DNA of 64,000 nt. Source: Bdellovibrionota bacterium. GTDB taxonomy: Bacteria; Bdellovibrionota; UBA1018; CAIPTA01; JAALKR01. The stretch is from assembly GCA_965207455.1 (NCBI GenBank), contig CBDBMJ010000003.1, positions 54,197 through 118,196 of the forward strand, read 5' to 3'. Positions within the stretch are counted from its first letter, which is position 1, and each line of letters opens with the position of its first letter. Shown here one piece after another: positions 19,861-25,556 of this stretch. The translations under genes were made by a program, and so were the position numbers. The notes under the pieces are model-generated. The model searched no databases, had not been told where the DNA came from, and saw only the letters and a program-made list of their open reading frames with translations.

Positions 19861-20796
19861 ATGAAGTGGAAATTTCCTCCAGCTTTAGCGTCGGATCAAG
19901 CAATCGGGGTGGTGGCACCCTCGAGCTTTGTGGATAATACATTCTTGCAATCAGGGCAAAAAAAATGCAGTCAGCTGGGCTTAAAACTCCACTATGACGA
20001 ATCCATATTGCAGAAAAAATTGTTCTTCGCAGGCGAAGACTCTCAAAGGGCAGAGAATTTTATTGCTGCCCATACTAGCGAGACCAATAATATGCTTTGG
20101 TGTGCACGAGGAGGCTACGGGGCTGCTCGTATTCTTCCCCTATTGGAGGAAAAAAAATTCCATACAACACTCCAAGAAAATCCAAAACTCCTTATTGGTT
20201 ACTCGGACTCCACAGCTCTCTTTACCTATTACCTACAAAGGGGAGGAGTTTCCTGTTTACACGCTCCCTTAATGGCAGCTCCCAGTTGGTTAGATACGAC
20301 AGAAAAAGATTCTACCGACTTTCTCAATATCCTTCATGGAACCACAGGTCTGGGCAAAGCCTCCCATACCGCAAAATGGAATACCCTTTTTTTAGGAAAC
20401 CGTGGGACAGCTGAAGGAATTCTCATGGGAGGAAATATTAGCGTGCTATGTTCTTTAGTGGGTACGCCTTGGCAGCCCAAGTTTCAAGGAGGGATTGTGC
20501 TACTGGAAGATTGTAACGAACCCCCTTACCGGCTTCACCGTATGCTTACCCAATTGGATCAGGCCGGTTGTTTCGACGGAATACGAGGAGTAATTCTCGG
20601 CGACTGCACCCACGGAGTGCCCAAAGGCACTACCTGGGAAACGGTCTTTTCCGACATACTCGTTCCCAAATGTCTCGTGCTTCATGGTGCTCCCGTGGGA
20701 CACAGCAAGCGCAACAGCCCTCTCCCACTAGGGGTGCGAGCTAGAATCAACTCCCAAGGAAAACTGGAGTTATTGGAGCAGGTGGTAGGGCTCTAG
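19861..20796 (+). CDS. ldcA: LD-carboxypeptidase (S66 family)
   Basis: VVAPSS...LW...GG...LIGYSDSTAL nucleophile-elbow region; 311 aa. Confidence 0.75.
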   Translation: MKWKFPPALASDQAIGVVAPSSFVDNTFLQSGQKKCSQLGLKLHYDESILQKKLFFAGEDSQRAENFIAAHTSETNNMLWCARGGYGAARILPLLEEKKFHTTLQENPKLLIGYSDSTALFTYYLQRGGVSCLHAPLMAAPSWLDTTEKDSTDFLNILHGTTGLGKASHTAKWNTLFLGNRGTAEGILMGGNISVLCSLVGTPWQPKFQGGIVLLEDCNEPPYRLHRMLTQLDQAGCFDGIRGVILGDCTHGVPKGTTWETVFSDILVPKCLVLHGAPVGHSKRNSPLPLGVRARINSQGKLELLEQVVGL

Positions 20797-20806
20797 GATT
20801 ATTAAG
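20760..20806. repeat. Imperfect ~45-bp direct repeat, left copy (covers last 12 codons of ldcA)
   Basis: aaaactggagttattgg[agcaggtg]gtagggctctaggattatta versus 22216..22256 aaaactggagttattgg[g]ggtaggactctaggattatta. Confidence 0.75.
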
Positions 20807-21431
20807 AGACCCAAAATTTCTGTAATTCATCAATAAAGCTCTGGTAAGCCTCTTCAAAGCTAGGTGCTTCTTTGATTCCTGAAACAGCACTTGACCAACC
20901 GATCTTCAGAAGGCTCAAATCTATGGTTTTTAAATGCTGGATAAGATCTTTAGGAATAACTGTTTCTCGATAATTGAAACAAGCTTCAAGAGAACGAAAT
21001 AAATTGTTTTTTTCAGCTCTTGGAAGAAAGTAGGATAAGTCAAATATATCCTTTGAGCGTGAATTGTACTTTCCAAGATCCACTAGTGCATGAATTTTTT
21101 CTGCAATCATTGTTTCTATAGGATAAACAAACCAAGTCAGTTCATTTTCTCCAATCAGCTCTGGTGTTTTAATTTGAAGAGGAGAAGGAACAATAGGATC
21201 ACCAATTCCTAGGTCAAATTGAATAATCTGGAACTTTTTTATATTTTTAGGTATCTCGCCAATCCCAGCACGAAATACTTGTCGAACTCCACCATACTCG
21301 CCCTGAGTTTTAAGATCTATTTCTTTTTCAAACCTAAACCAAACAGCATCATTAAAAGTTTTTTCTACGACTACCTTAACAGCATCAAGATCAATTGTAT
21401 ACCTGCTGGATTTATAAATACGTAGTCCCAC
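20802..21431 (-). CDS. abiEii: AbiEii/DUF1814 nucleotidyltransferase toxin (type IV TA / abortive infection); N-terminus ambiguous
   Basis: IETMIAEKIHALVDLGKYNSRSKDIFDL matches the AbiEii signature. First canonical start is GTG at 21431, but the in-frame upstream 33 codons encode ...LVFKGGYVGL (the conserved GG nucleotide-binding motif) with no ATG/GTG/TTG; in-frame stop at 21531. Confidence 0.6.
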   Translation of the reverse strand: MGLRIYKSSRYTIDLDAVKVVVEKTFNDAVWFRFEKEIDLKTQGEYGGVRQVFRAGIGEIPKNIKKFQIIQFDLGIGDPIVPSPLQIKTPELIGENELTWFVYPIETMIAEKIHALVDLGKYNSRSKDIFDLSYFLPRAEKNNLFRSLEACFNYRETVIPKDLIQHLKTIDLSLLKIGWSSAVSGIKEAPSFEEAYQSFIDELQKFWVS

Positions 21432-21557
21432 ATAGCCACCCTTGAAAACAAGAGATTTGTAGAGTGTTGCATTTGATGTAATTCTGACAACTAAGATTAT
21501 TTTTTTTAGCCCAATTTGAAAGCTTCTGTTTTATCGAGATGCTCTGATTCTTTATAC

Positions 21558-22124
21558 TCATAAAATGATGGCCTCCCAATATTTATCAAAGGTTTTTTTT
21601 AGGTTTAGTGCAGTTGCCATTTTTCCAAGTTTCGTTTCTGTAGTAAGGTCATCTTTAAGAGCACGTCTTGTTGCATTTATCGCAATTCTAAGACCGAGTT
21701 TCGTTGCAAATTTTAGTGATTCAATAAGTGTGCGCTCAATATTTGTGATTTTAAAGCATCCTCGATCTTCGATTCCTTTAGTAAAAGGTGTGCTTGTTCT
21801 AAGACATTTATATTTTTTGCGTTCATTTTTTTTTGCTTGAGGTACGATAAGCCAAACTTGCTGAGGAGCCTGATCAATGAGTCCGTAATGAAAAAGAGCA
21901 GAGAGCCCACTTACGGCAGCATCTGGTCCAAAATACTTGTATGCCATAGCAAAATCCAGCTCTTCTGGATCAATGGAAGACTTTGGATGCATATAAAGAC
22001 CACGATCAATTCGTAGGAGCTTTTCCTGCTTCACCCACCTTGAAAGCGTGTGTCGCCCAATGCCCGCGCTGCTTTGAGCTTCTTTCGCATTGAATATTCC
22101 AAGTTTTTTTAGTTTGCTAGGCAT
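21558..22124 (-). CDS. abiEi: AbiEi antitoxin / transcriptional regulator
   Basis: N-terminal wHTH LGIFNAKEAQSSAGIGRHTLSRWVKQEKLLRIDRGLY typical of AbiEi_4; 188 aa; directly upstream of abiEii. Confidence 0.65.
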   Translation of the reverse strand: MPSKLKKLGIFNAKEAQSSAGIGRHTLSRWVKQEKLLRIDRGLYMHPKSSIDPEELDFAMAYKYFGPDAAVSGLSALFHYGLIDQAPQQVWLIVPQAKKNERKKYKCLRTSTPFTKGIEDRGCFKITNIERTLIESLKFATKLGLRIAINATRRALKDDLTTETKLGKMATALNLKKTFDKYWEAIIL

Positions 22125-22136
22125 CTTATTCTATTA

Positions 22137-22182
22137 TGCACCAAATCCGACATTTTTCAACAAAAATGTCGGATTTGGTGCA
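22137..22182. promoter_or_regulatory. Perfect 21-bp inverted repeat with 4-nt loop, 13 nt upstream of abiEi start (candidate AbiEi operator and/or terminator of upstream lipoprotein gene)
   Basis: tgcaccaaatccgacattttt-caac-aaaaatgtcggatttggtgca; arms are exact reverse complements. Confidence 0.55.
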
Positions 22183-22215
22183 TATACGATAGCAGCCATG
22201 GAGCATAAGTACCTA

Positions 22216-22256
22216 AAAACTGGAGTTATTGGGGGTAGGACTCTAGGATTATTAGG
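22216..22256. repeat. Imperfect direct repeat, right copy (ldcA-tail remnant overlapping lipoprotein stop)
   Basis: See left copy 20760..20806. Confidence 0.75.
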
Positions 22257-23004
22257 GTAGGGGCCACAAGCGAAACACGCTTTCTGTTTTCGATATCCAC
22301 TCCCCCCGTTCAAAGGGTGTTTTCACGGTATAAGGTGATTTAGCAAAACGGAAAAGCAGGGGCGGGTAGGTTTTATCTTCTTTTTGCCACTGGGGATTTT
22401 GTCTTCCTTTTGCGTGACGAAAGTTTAAGAAGTCGAAGTGTATGTACACCTCCTTTGTGTTTCCAGAGGCAAGAACTCGCCCATCTGGAGTAAGTCGCTT
22501 GGAGTAATCTATTGACGGCAGGCCCATTCGATTCATGGTAATTTCGTCTTTAATCTGAGTATATTCACAGAGATTTATATTTTCTTTTTGGGTAATATGA
22601 ACACGTCCGTGGCTCACGCCCCCATCCTTTCGTCGACCAAATACTTCAAAAGATTTTCTATTACTCAGTTTCTTTCCCTCCTTTCCCCAAAGTTCGTAAA
22701 GAAAAACCATGGACTCTTCTGGAAATAAACCGCAAGAAGGAATTTTATATACTTTCAGAAGTTTCCTGCCACCAAGGAAGCTTACTTCTATTTTCTCTTC
22801 TGTATGGCGCTCGTCGGTTGCAGCTAGGCTATCGCTTAAGGTATTTAGAGTGCCCTTCCAAGTGCCCTCTAGTTTTTCAAAAGAGAAGCTCTTCCAACTT
22901 TGGTTCATTTTGGTACACTCAAAGCATAAAGAATTTAGTCTTTGCCCCGCACAGCCACTCAAAAATAAACCCAATACGCCAATAGAAAAAAGTAAACGCA
23001 CCAT
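22252..23004 (-). CDS. Lipoprotein of unknown function
   Basis: Lipobox LFLSGCAG; 250 aa; no family recognised; sits between the AbiE and HipBA modules. Confidence 0.5.
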   Translation of the reverse strand: MVRLLFSIGVLGLFLSGCAGQRLNSLCFECTKMNQSWKSFSFEKLEGTWKGTLNTLSDSLAATDERHTEEKIEVSFLGGRKLLKVYKIPSCGLFPEESMVFLYELWGKEGKKLSNRKSFEVFGRRKDGGVSHGRVHITQKENINLCEYTQIKDEITMNRMGLPSIDYSKRLTPDGRVLASGNTKEVYIHFDFLNFRHAKGRQNPQWQKEDKTYPPLLFRFAKSPYTVKTPFERGEWISKTESVFRLWPLP

Positions 23005-23092
23005 TTTTTATGCCTCCTTATAGAAGACATATCGGCAGCAGTTATTTTTACTTGAGCACTATTTATCACCGTCAAAGAATTGACAATTTATT

Positions 23093-24313
23093 TCATGAAT
23101 ACATTTTTTTTGCTTTTTTTAACTCTGCATGTTCGAACGCTGAGGCCATGCGATCGATTTCTTTTTTACTTAAGCCAAATTGTTGGGCAATATCGCGCCA
23201 GCTAGAAACAGCCGTTGCCACCTGCTTCACAATCTTATACGCTTGATTTTTTTCTAGTCTAAATTCGTCAATAACAGATAGAGCTGTATCAATAGAGGCT
23301 GTTGAGTCATTGAAGCTAATTGAAGTTGAAAGGATACGGTCCTTTATGTCGATGGGATTTGGGTTTATATCGTAAGCAGGTGAGAGGCGCCAGCCTTTAT
23401 GTCGTTCATATAAAAAACCATGGTTTCGCAAATGATCGTCGGTATTAGAAATAAGTACGGTGAAGACAATCCTGCGCCAAAGTTCTGCCATATCTTGATC
23501 GGGTTTTTCACCATACTGTATAAGGGCATGGGCGATCTCAAGATAGCTGCGCCTATCATTATCTTTTGCACCAAGCATACTCATGGCAGAGAGGAATGGA
23601 ATGCGTTTATTACCTATTCGATCAAAGCGCTGTATAATGAGAACAGGTTTTTTCTGGATATTTTCTAAGCGCACTTCAGGGATCTGTAGACCAGCTTTTT
23701 GTGCCAGTTTAAGAGCCACAGCTTCCCATACAACAACATTATATTCATCATCTTTTTTAGGAAATTTAGCAATAGCGAGACGACCATTTTTATCATACAC
23801 AGATACCTTTGGTCTTGCACCACCAAGAGAAGAGCCTGGAGCAAGAAGTATTTTTAAATCATCCTCTGTTTCATTATCATTTAAGAAATTCTCGGAGGCA
23901 GACAAAAGCCTTGGTAAATCAATAAGTGGTGGAATGCTTGTTCTGTTTTTTCGAGTTAAGTATGGTCCTTGGGATTGCAGGGAAAAGCGCAGCGCGCCCT
24001 GACGTGATTCATCGTTGACGGCAAGGAGATAATCTATTTCTAAAAGAGGTTTCATGGCTTGCCCTTTCCTTTTTGCACGCATACTTTCAAAGCGCTGAAT
24101 GAGAATATGTCCCCAGCGATCTGGAGCAGAGTCTCCAATTGCGCCAAATAAAGCCTGACCGGGGCATGTATAAAAAGCACCCTCGGTGAGTTGCAAGGCC
24201 GGATCAATGGCAAATCTTTCGCGATTCTTGCGCTGGTGACACCATAATTTACCCACTTGCTGGCGCTCATCACCAAGTTGGATAGAAACATAAATTTGCT
24301 TACTATTTGCCAT
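23093..24313 (-). CDS. hipA: HipA-family Ser/Thr kinase toxin (type II TA)
   Basis: N-terminal couple_hipA-like domain (IYVSIQLGDERQQVGKLW) and HipA_C kinase core; start taken at MANSKQ (24313), overlapping the hipB stop by 11 nt. Confidence 0.75.
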   Translation of the reverse strand: MANSKQIYVSIQLGDERQQVGKLWCHQRKNRERFAIDPALQLTEGAFYTCPGQALFGAIGDSAPDRWGHILIQRFESMRAKRKGQAMKPLLEIDYLLAVNDESRQGALRFSLQSQGPYLTRKNRTSIPPLIDLPRLLSASENFLNDNETEDDLKILLAPGSSLGGARPKVSVYDKNGRLAIAKFPKKDDEYNVVVWEAVALKLAQKAGLQIPEVRLENIQKKPVLIIQRFDRIGNKRIPFLSAMSMLGAKDNDRRSYLEIAHALIQYGEKPDQDMAELWRRIVFTVLISNTDDHLRNHGFLYERHKGWRLSPAYDINPNPIDIKDRILSTSISFNDSTASIDTALSVIDEFRLEKNQAYKIVKQVATAVSSWRDIAQQFGLSKKEIDRMASAFEHAELKKAKKMYS

Positions 24314-24638
24314 TGTTCTCTCGATTGATCCGAGGAAACCGAATGCGTTTTGGCAGGTTTTCTGTTTCCAGATCCAGTCCAATAATATCGCGGTGTGGGC
24401 CGGCTATATTCTGCAAGTGATCAGTCATGCCTAGTACGAATAGAGCACAGGCATATGATCCCATTGAAACAGAGGGCTCACCTCTTTCAATTTTGCCTAA
24501 AGTTATAACTGAAAAGCCTGCACGTTCAGCCATAATTTTTGTGGGGATACGCCGTCGTCGTCGAGCGACAGAGATATTTTCACCAAGCTCACGCATGGCT
24601 CTTTTTGCAGGAATGGGTAATCGTGGTTTACGTTTCAT
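24303..24638 (-). CDS. hipB: HipB-like XRE-family HTH antitoxin
   Basis: HTH ISVARRRRRIPTKIMAERAGFSVITLGKIERGE; 111 aa; translationally coupled to hipA. Confidence 0.7.
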   Translation of the reverse strand: MKRKPRLPIPAKRAMRELGENISVARRRRRIPTKIMAERAGFSVITLGKIERGEPSVSMGSYACALFVLGMTDHLQNIAGPHRDIIGLDLETENLPKRIRFPRINRENNGK

Positions 24639-24650
24639 CTGTTCACCTTA

Positions 24651-24701
24651 ATATATCTTATAATATATACTATAGTATTTAAGAATAATTATAAGATATA
24701 T
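24651..24701. promoter_or_regulatory. hipBA operator candidate: 14-bp perfect inverted repeat (atatatcttataat / attataagatatat) enclosing a 12-bp palindrome atactatagtat
   Basis: Read directly, 13 to 63 nt upstream of the hipB start on the minus strand. Confidence 0.55.
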
Positions 24702-24896
24702 TATACTCCCTTGCTGTTCAGAGACTCTTTAAATTATGGTGAAGCCTCCACTGAGCACTTAAGCAATAAAAAATATGCTTAACTGTCAAAACTACTATAA
24801 GCATATGTTATTTAAGGCTATTTTTTATGTATTTAAGGGAGCGACCTCAATCCTACTGCCCACATCACTCTGCAAAATAACGAATTCCAGCTAAAT

Positions 24897-25556
24897 CTAT
24901 TCAGCAGGTTGGTGTCGAATAATAGTACCGTCGATCATGTAAATTACATCTTCCGCAATATTGACTGCATAATCACCAATATGCTCCAAGTGACGAGAGA
25001 CGGATAAATAATGGATAAGAACCTCCACGTTATTTGGATCCTTGCGAATGCAATCATAGACTTGGCGATAGGTCTGCCTATTGATTGCATCCAGCTCATC
25101 ATCGAGACCAACAGTTTCCCGTGCAAGCTCCCCATCCCTATCAATCATAGAGTCCAGTGCTCTTCGGAGGATGGTGCGCGCTTTTTTGGCCATCTCTTCA
25201 AAATCAAATGGCGCTTCAATGGGATCCATCTTAGAAATAACTGCGGCTCGCCTTGAAATATTAACAGCCAAATCTCCCACTCTCTCTAAATCGTTATTAA
25301 TTTTCAAGACACCGATCAAAAAACGCATATCTATGGCAACTGGCTGATGAAGAGCCAGCACTTTTAAGCATTCTTCTTCTAAAGCCACCTCAGCTAAATC
25401 CACCTCATGATCCAGCTCTTTAAGATGCTTAGCTAGTTTTTCATCTCGGTGCTTCAACGCTGTTATAGCTTTCCCTAGATTTCCTTCCACCATGGCACTT
25501 AATAAAAGTAATTTTCGTTTAATTGCATCTAATTCCCATTCTAATCGTTTAACCAT
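24897..25556 (-). CDS. phoU: Phosphate signalling complex protein PhoU
   Basis: Two PhoU repeats (DLERVGDLAVNI, RHLEHIGDYAVNIAE). Confidence 0.9.
   Translation of the reverse strand: MVKRLEWELDAIKRKLLLLSAMVEGNLGKAITALKHRDEKLAKHLKELDHEVDLAEVALEEECLKVLALHQPVAIDMRFLIGVLKINNDLERVGDLAVNISRRAAVISKMDPIEAPFDFEEMAKKARTILRRALDSMIDRDGELARETVGLDDELDAINRQTYRQVYDCIRKDPNNVEVLIHYLSVSRHLEHIGDYAVNIAEDVIYMIDGTIIRHQPAE

Follow-up and report, generated by a model that had tools for sequence, protein, structure and literature searches.

A perfect 50-bp palindrome as the probable AbiEi operator of an abiE promoter in a Bdellovibrionota bacterium

What role does a long, perfect palindrome play when it lies directly in front of an abiEi gene? 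The question is raised by a stretch of 64,000 nucleotides from a Bdellovibrionota bacterium, referred to below as the window. On its minus strand, a lipoprotein-type gene (22252-23004) is followed by 67 nt, the palindrome, another 10 nt, abiEi (21558-22124) and abiEii. The lipoprotein-type gene is co-directional with abiEi, its stop codon lying at the far side of the 67 nt, and encodes a protein of 250 aa with a signal peptide ending in LSGC and no match in Pfam. The product of abiEi comprises 188 aa and matches Pfam AbiEi_4. An in-frame TAG at 22131-22133 precludes translation from any codon upstream of the ATG at 22124. The first-pass annotation had considered the palindrome a candidate operator for AbiEi and, alternatively, a terminator of the lipoprotein gene.

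The palindrome had been described as a sequence of 46 nt at 22137-22182 with perfect arms of 21 bp. This sequence is present exactly as quoted and its arms are indeed perfect, but they are longer than had been stated, as complementarity continues for 2 bp on each side. The complete element, a predicted operator palindrome, thus spans 50 bp (22135-22184, minus strand) and consists of two 23-bp arms that are 100% complementary to one another and a 4-nt centre. Its sense (minus) strand reads TATGCACCAAATCCGACATTTTT-GTTG-AAAAATGTCGGATTTGGTGCATA. The distance to the abiEi ATG, previously given as 13 nt, agrees with ours within counting convention, 12 nt lying between the 46-nt form and the A of the ATG. 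The upstream arm (22162-22184), equivalent to the repeat termed IR1 in characterised abiE promoters, and the downstream arm (22135-22157), equivalent to IR2, are 23-bp half-sites, each predicted to bind one AbiEi monomer. Both contain an inner conserved box, GACATTT (22164-22170 in the upstream and 22149-22155 in the downstream arm), and an outer variable box, GCACC, at positions 18-22 from the dyad (22177-22181 and 22138-22142, respectively).

With the use of a repeat finder, the 50-bp palindrome proved to be the longest inverted repeat in the 64 kb, the runner-up among the perfect repeats having arms of 16 nt. No copy of the 21-nt half-site was found in the window outside the two arms when up to 3 mismatches were allowed, and 100 shuffles gave 0 matches. 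As single-stranded DNA, the hairpin had a folding energy of -26.6 kcal/mol (z = -11.0 against shuffles), and folding as RNA in a context of 161 nt gave a z of -7.95 against shuffles. A chance origin of the palindrome is ruled out by its length, its uniqueness, these folding scores and the repeat scores of homologous loci relative to controls, which are described below.

Concerning the identity of the protein, the Pfam model PF13338 (AbiEi_4) recognized residues 7-45 of the window AbiEi with 34.7 bits against a cut-off of 25. A family profile built from 42 members could be aligned end to end with the crystallised AbiEi from Streptococcus agalactiae (PDB 6y8q; E 2e-5), family positions 12-193 corresponding to 6y8q residues 12-195. 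An AlphaFold (AF2) model of the window AbiEi, built on the family alignment, reached a pLDDT of 94.2 and displayed helices at residues 13-20 (H13-20) and 24-32 (H24-32), and a beta-hairpin wing at residues 37-45, in keeping with a winged helix-turn-helix of the AbiEi type at the N-terminus. When this model was compared with the PDB by Foldseek, 6y8q was the best match (E 1.8e-9, TM 0.66), and Rv2827c from Mycobacterium tuberculosis (1zel) was the third-ranked fold match (E 1.1e-4). Both of these homologs are proteins whose binding to DNA repeats has been shown experimentally. The window AbiEi is ~18% identical in sequence to the S. agalactiae protein, and the NCBIfam equivalog NF047376 scored 20 bits against a cut-off of 150, which places the window AbiEi in a distant subfamily. 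Judged from Pfam, the PDB profile alignment and the predicted fold, the protein is a full-length AbiEi.

We then turn to the promoter. The best sigma70-like site between 20500 and 23500 is TTGAAA-16-CATAAT on the minus strand, which matches the consensus at 10 of 12 positions and is located inside the palindrome. The predicted -35, TTGAAA (22155-22160), straddles the dyad, being composed of two loop bases and the first bases of the downstream arm. Owing to the asymmetry of the 4-nt centre, this hexamer does not occur on the opposite strand. The 16-nt spacer is taken up by the downstream arm, which also overlaps the predicted -10, CATAAT (22133-22138), whose first four bases are the last four of the palindrome. 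The segment between the -10 and the ATG, AGAATAAG (22125-22132), is eight nucleotides in length and is devoid of a Shine-Dalgarno (SD) sequence. The neighbouring hipB-like gene has AAGGTG in front of its ATG, so the absence of an SD sequence is specific to abiEi. Taking into account that the ATG follows the -10 by 8 nt and that an SD sequence is missing, the abiEi mRNA is predicted to be leaderless or near-leaderless, with transcription starting at or within ~2 nt of the ATG. With promoter and start assigned in this way from consensus sequences, the whole operator would be situated at ~-58 to -9 relative to the predicted transcription start. A promoter and ORF on the plus strand were also considered and rejected; the 56-aa ORF at 22090-22260 is unsupported, and TTGAAA is confined to the minus strand.

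In order to place the element in a wider context, we collected 86 abiE loci whose AbiEi homologs are 42-61% identical, mostly from metagenome-assembled genomes (MAGs) of Bdellovibrionota together with a group from Acidobacteria. A scan of genome contigs gave matches mostly from Bdellovibrionota MAGs, the best of which was 58% identical to the window AbiEi, and a metagenome scan with the single window protein returned two distant relatives only (38% and 27%). Repeat scores and dyad positions were determined in 81 non-redundant loci. For the positions we used a dyad-symmetry score in place of a repeat finder restricted to 2 mismatches or fewer, which under-called imperfect operators such as those of loci L001 and L063. 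Within 100 nt upstream of abiEi, the top-scoring inverted repeat reached a median of 12 over the 81 loci, against 5-6 in the controls, for which windows were drawn at random from the same loci and upstream regions were shuffled. Scores of at least 12 were obtained in 51% of the loci compared with 0.5% and 0% of the controls. In 69 of the 81 loci, the dyad was located 31-37.5 nt before the start codon, the value in the window being 35. The upstream neighbour varied; by a crude calling of ORFs, it was divergent in 30 of 74 loci; in the other 44 it pointed in the same direction as abiEi, at a distance of 8-1251 nt. Given its constant spacing to abiEi and the variable upstream neighbour, the element travels with abiEi and not with the 3' end of the upstream gene.

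The promoter geometry is also shared among the homologs. In 59 of 69 loci the best -35, mostly TTGAAA or TTGACA, was separated from the dyad by 1-4 nt, and the -10 ended 3-9 nt before the start codon, likewise in 59 of 69 loci. The most frequent distance was 6 nt, so that the 8 nt of the window lie 2 nt above the family mode. An SD-like 4-mer preceded the abiEi start in only one of the 69 homologous loci. In the public gene calls of several homologs (L001-L006; for L001, 2199 versus 2226), the start is an ATG inside the downstream arm, giving proteins of 200-203 aa. The conserved promoter geometry indicates that the true start of these genes is located 9-12 codons downstream, which would correspond to ~194 aa.

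The primary sequence of the arms was then compared among the loci. Positions 5-11 from the dyad, with the sequence (G)ACATTT, are near-invariant (1.2-2.0 bits), and AA is found at positions 15-16. Positions 12-13 and 17-22 carry only 0.2-0.8 bits, yet the two arms agree with each other at these positions in 64-93% of the loci. As the arms are symmetric even where they are poorly conserved, the two arms change together, as expected if they were contacted by two copies of one protein whose specificity drifts between homologs. Among the mismatched arm positions we counted 38 G.T, 48 A.C and 165 transversion-type pairs. There is thus no G-U excess, and selection therefore acts on double-stranded DNA rather than on an RNA hairpin. 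In four homologous loci (L026, L027, L038 and L044), an extra half-site or a second palindrome was observed ~50-80 nt upstream of abiEi.

These results bear on the alternative raised in the first-pass annotation, namely that the hairpin is an intrinsic terminator, or another RNA-level barrier to read-through, of the lipoprotein gene at 22252-23004, and that it adjoins abiEi fortuitously. The stem is very stable, the stop codon of the lipoprotein gene is found 67 nt upstream on the same strand, and from this stop codon to abiEi the minus strand yielded no further terminator call. However, a T/U-tract is absent after the stem on either strand, the sequences being TAATAGAATAAG on the minus and TACGATAGCAGC on the plus strand, and a terminator scan did not call the hairpin; the earlier annotation, too, had remarked that no U-tract follows. 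In addition, the element keeps its distance to abiEi while the upstream gene is divergent or variably spaced, base identity is conserved beyond what pairing would demand, the mismatches display no bias towards G-U pairs, and a promoter is located within the element itself. We consider termination as the function of the palindrome improbable. At the window locus, the hairpin may hinder read-through from the lipoprotein gene, as a secondary role at most.

A structured RNA element was likewise examined and rejected. When 20000-25000 was compared with Rfam (E<=1), no family was assigned to the hairpin; only miRNA-precursor models matched it, all below threshold with 22-26 bits where 70-100 are required. 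There is no G-U preference, and transcription is predicted to begin only after the palindrome.

A long perfect palindrome is a typical feature of dispersed repeats of the REP or MITE kind, and the abiE locus is situated in a small toxin-antitoxin cluster, beside a hipA-like pair. One could thus suppose that the palindrome plays no part in regulation and is either such a repeat or a site where a mobile cassette recombines or forms a cruciform. We regard this as extremely unlikely, as the half-site is unique to the two arms within the 64-kb window even with 3 mismatches, Rfam holds no family for it, and in the homologs its placement relative to both promoter hexamers and the start codon is fixed.

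Some features of the neighbouring cluster were noted along the way. The hipB-like gene, encoding a helix-turn-helix (HTH) protein (24303-24638, minus strand), precedes a gene with a HipA_C domain (23093-24382). A perfect 16-bp inverted repeat, TAATATATCTTATAAT-N23-ATTATAAGATATATTA, is present at 24649-24703, ~10 nt before the SD sequence and ATG of the hipB-like gene, and is a candidate for a HipB-type operator in the same toxin-antitoxin cluster. The longest hipA-like ORF opens with a TTG at 24382 and shares 80 nt with the 3' end of the hipB-like gene; translation of hipA probably begins at a later codon. Between the phoU stop codon (24897) and the promoter region of the hipB-like gene there is a further inverted repeat of 17 bp (24766-24828), which is imperfect (88% complementary) and possibly terminates the pst-phoU operon.

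If AbiEi is the protein that reads the palindrome, changes in the operator should be accompanied by changes in the protein. Covariation was calculated for every pairing of a variable protein column with one of ten variable operator positions, with statistics that ignore phylogeny. The strongest associations were those of operator position 19 with residue 24 (z 19.4) and of position 20 with residue 25 (z 17.1). As the recognition helix corresponds to H24-32 in the AF2 model, residues 24 and 25 would be its first two residues. When these residues are QQ, the outer box is GGTG in 28 of 28 loci; with HQ it is GGC/CGC (12 of 12 loci), and with QP it is (A/C)ATG. C is found at position 18 in all 14 half-sites that go with R24, compared with 8 of the 124 half-sites without R24, and R24 is spread over three clades defined by the C-terminal domain alone. 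The window pair combines R24 and H25 in the protein with the outer box GCACC in the operator. At the same time, many other protein columns also track operator position 20, and since the statistics are in addition blind to phylogeny, a code relating residues to bases is only suggested by these data.

In many Bdellovibrionota MAGs, two or more paralogous abiE loci of the subfamily are found in one genome, some of them adjacent or divergent within ~5 kb. The outer boxes differ in the paralog pairs L011/L013 (OZ240230.1), L049/L078 (JANOYW010000005.1), L007/L025, L019/L074 and L037/L066, which fits repressor-operator pairs that may be insulated from one another.

The same observations help to judge whether the palindrome could be the site of some other regulator of abiE, such as a host factor or a protein of a phage or mobile element. 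The ACATTT sequence is nearly invariant in hosts ranging from Bdellovibrionota to Acidobacteria, as could be the case for the site of a widely conserved factor. However, the outer box co-varies with residues of the AbiEi recognition helix, including the combination of R24 and C18 in three clades, paralogous abiE loci of a single genome differ in their outer boxes, and the two characterised AbiEi proteins bind exactly such repeats (PMC3985639, PMC7319586). Recognition by a different regulator is in our judgement very unlikely.

Taken together, the identity of the protein, the 23-N4-23 design next to the published 23-N3-23, the fixed position in 69 of 81 loci, the covariation and the presence of the promoter inside the element support the candidate AbiEi operator proposed from the first-pass annotation. 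We conclude, from what is a comparative analysis of sequences, that the 50-bp palindrome is very probably the operator through which AbiEi represses the abiE promoter and thereby its own synthesis. We infer that AbiEi binds the arms with one molecule on each, a prediction that follows the monomer-per-repeat model of PMC7319586. At 5-11 bp from the dyad, the (G)ACATTT inner box would be the part of the site that the whole subfamily has in common. The outer box, at 18-22 bp from the dyad, differs between homologs and is apparently recognized through the residues that open the recognition helix, R24 and H25 in the window protein. The -35 coincides with the dyad, and the downstream arm takes up the spacer and extends to the -10. 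AbiEi molecules on the two arms would therefore mask not only the -35 and the spacer but also part of the -10, and by blocking RNA polymerase would repress transcription of their own gene, an arrangement of negative autoregulation.

The state of the toxin gene has to be considered here. The abiEii gene (20802-21561, minus strand) encodes a DUF1814 nucleotidyltransferase toxin (PF08843, E 7.7e-16), and its ATG at 21561 overlaps the abiEi stop codon (ATGA, 21558-21561). It lacks 41 nt that are present in the homologs L001 and L004, with the junction at ~21485/21486, resulting in a shift of the frame, and further on it has an in-frame deletion of 13 aa relative to homologs. It is probably a toxin pseudogene, or possibly the product of an assembly error. 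Beside the disrupted abiEii, the abiEi gene is intact and its operator palindrome perfect. As the cognate toxin gene is disrupted, the module may be decaying, and the palindrome need not still be in use.

The covariation, the paralogs and the intact abiEi together raise the possibility of a modular recognition code in which the start of the helix sets the outer box, paralogs are insulated from one another, and AbiEi outlives its toxin. We put this forward tentatively, as a reading that may be correct but is open to considerable doubt. Its fixed part would be the (G)ACATTT inner box, anchoring every member of the subfamily. With regard to residue 24, Q24 would specify T19/G18, H24 would specify C19 and R24 would specify C18; with regard to residue 25, Q25 would specify G20, and P, S or H25 would specify A20. 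If this were true, nature would provide dozens of mutually orthogonal repressor-operator pairs, several abiE paralogs could coexist in one genome without cross-talk, and the window AbiEi may live on by itself, as a DNA-binding protein that regulates its own synthesis and is made from a leaderless mRNA.

As for the annotation of the window, the palindrome would be described as a cis-regulatory site of the abiE module, and not as a terminator, an RNA gene or the end of a mobile element. Alignment of ~70 natural pairs of operator and repressor indicates that the 23-N-23 design has been kept from Firmicutes and Actinobacteria to Bdellovibrionota and Acidobacteria. The aligned pairs divide each arm into an invariant part and a part for specificity, and point to particular helix residues as candidates for setting that specificity. 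Pairs of AbiEi and operator could supply orthogonal repressor parts, and swaps of residues and boxes would probe them directly. The predicted leaderless mRNA and the decayed toxin gene are small additions to how modules of this kind are expressed and how they die.

To our knowledge, AbiEi operators have been studied experimentally in only two cases, those of S. agalactiae AbiEi and M. tuberculosis Rv2827c. In the abiE promoter (PabiE) of S. agalactiae V/R 2603, the repeats read 5'-TGTTGCTTTTATACCACAAATAT-N3-AAAATTGTAGTGTAAAAGCAACA-3', a 23+3+23 arrangement with 4 mismatches (Dy et al. 2014, PMC3985639). The S. agalactiae AbiEi produced two shifts in EMSA, removal of one repeat left one shift, and removal of both abolished binding; the protein repressed PabiE-lacZ, the toxin had no effect on repression, and similar repeats were found upstream of other abiE loci (PMC3985639). 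In PMC7319586, S. agalactiae AbiEi is described, with reference to Hampton et al. 2018, as monomeric in solution and as occupying the two repeats with two monomers, and its binding is described as requiring a positive surface across both domains. For M. tuberculosis Rv2827c, binding to four repeats of 23 bp has been described (Beck et al. 2020, PMC7319586).

The window locus resembles that of S. agalactiae in having two 23-bp repeats with a gap of 3-4 bp (49 bp in S. agalactiae and 50 bp here) that lie immediately upstream of abiEi and overlap the promoter. The two proteins share the same two-domain fold and are nearly equal in length (195 aa and 188 aa here), and the abiEi and abiEii genes overlap by 4 nt in both. 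The ACA of the inner box is located 8-10 bp from the dyad here and, by our reading of the published sequence, 7.5-9.5 bp from the dyad in S. agalactiae. In contrast to the 4 arm mismatches in PabiE, the arms here are perfect, and the toxin gene in the window is disrupted, unlike that of S. agalactiae. The promoters are also placed differently. In PabiE the -35 occupies the outer portion of IR1, and IR2 continues beyond +1, whereas the predicted -35 of the window locus coincides with the dyad and its predicted -10 overlaps the end of the downstream arm; the S. agalactiae transcript has a mapped leader of 26 nt with an RBS, whereas a leaderless mRNA without an SD sequence is predicted here. The promoter register thus differs from that of the characterised case. 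Operators of this kind, composed of IR1 and IR2 for AbiEi, were already known; what is new here is the shifted promoter register and the predicted leaderless transcript.

The promoter of the M. tuberculosis Rv2827c/Rv2826c module (Prv2827c) is similar in that a 23-bp repeat unit, bound by a monomeric antitoxin of the AbiEi family, is placed over the promoter, and its layout of four repeats is resembled by the homologs with extra upstream half-sites (L026, L027, L038 and L044). It differs in containing two pairs of repeats with 13-bp gaps, compared with one pair with a 4-bp gap in the window, and Rv2827c has a larger C-terminal domain than the window AbiEi. The operators of type II antitoxins, such as those of the HipB type, are comparable in that a palindrome lies over the toxin-antitoxin promoter and the antitoxin represses its own synthesis. 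Type II antitoxins usually act as dimers on short half-sites, with the toxin as a co-repressor (conditional cooperativity). S. agalactiae AbiEi differs on both counts, as its toxin is without effect (PMC3985639) and each long arm takes one monomer (PMC7319586).
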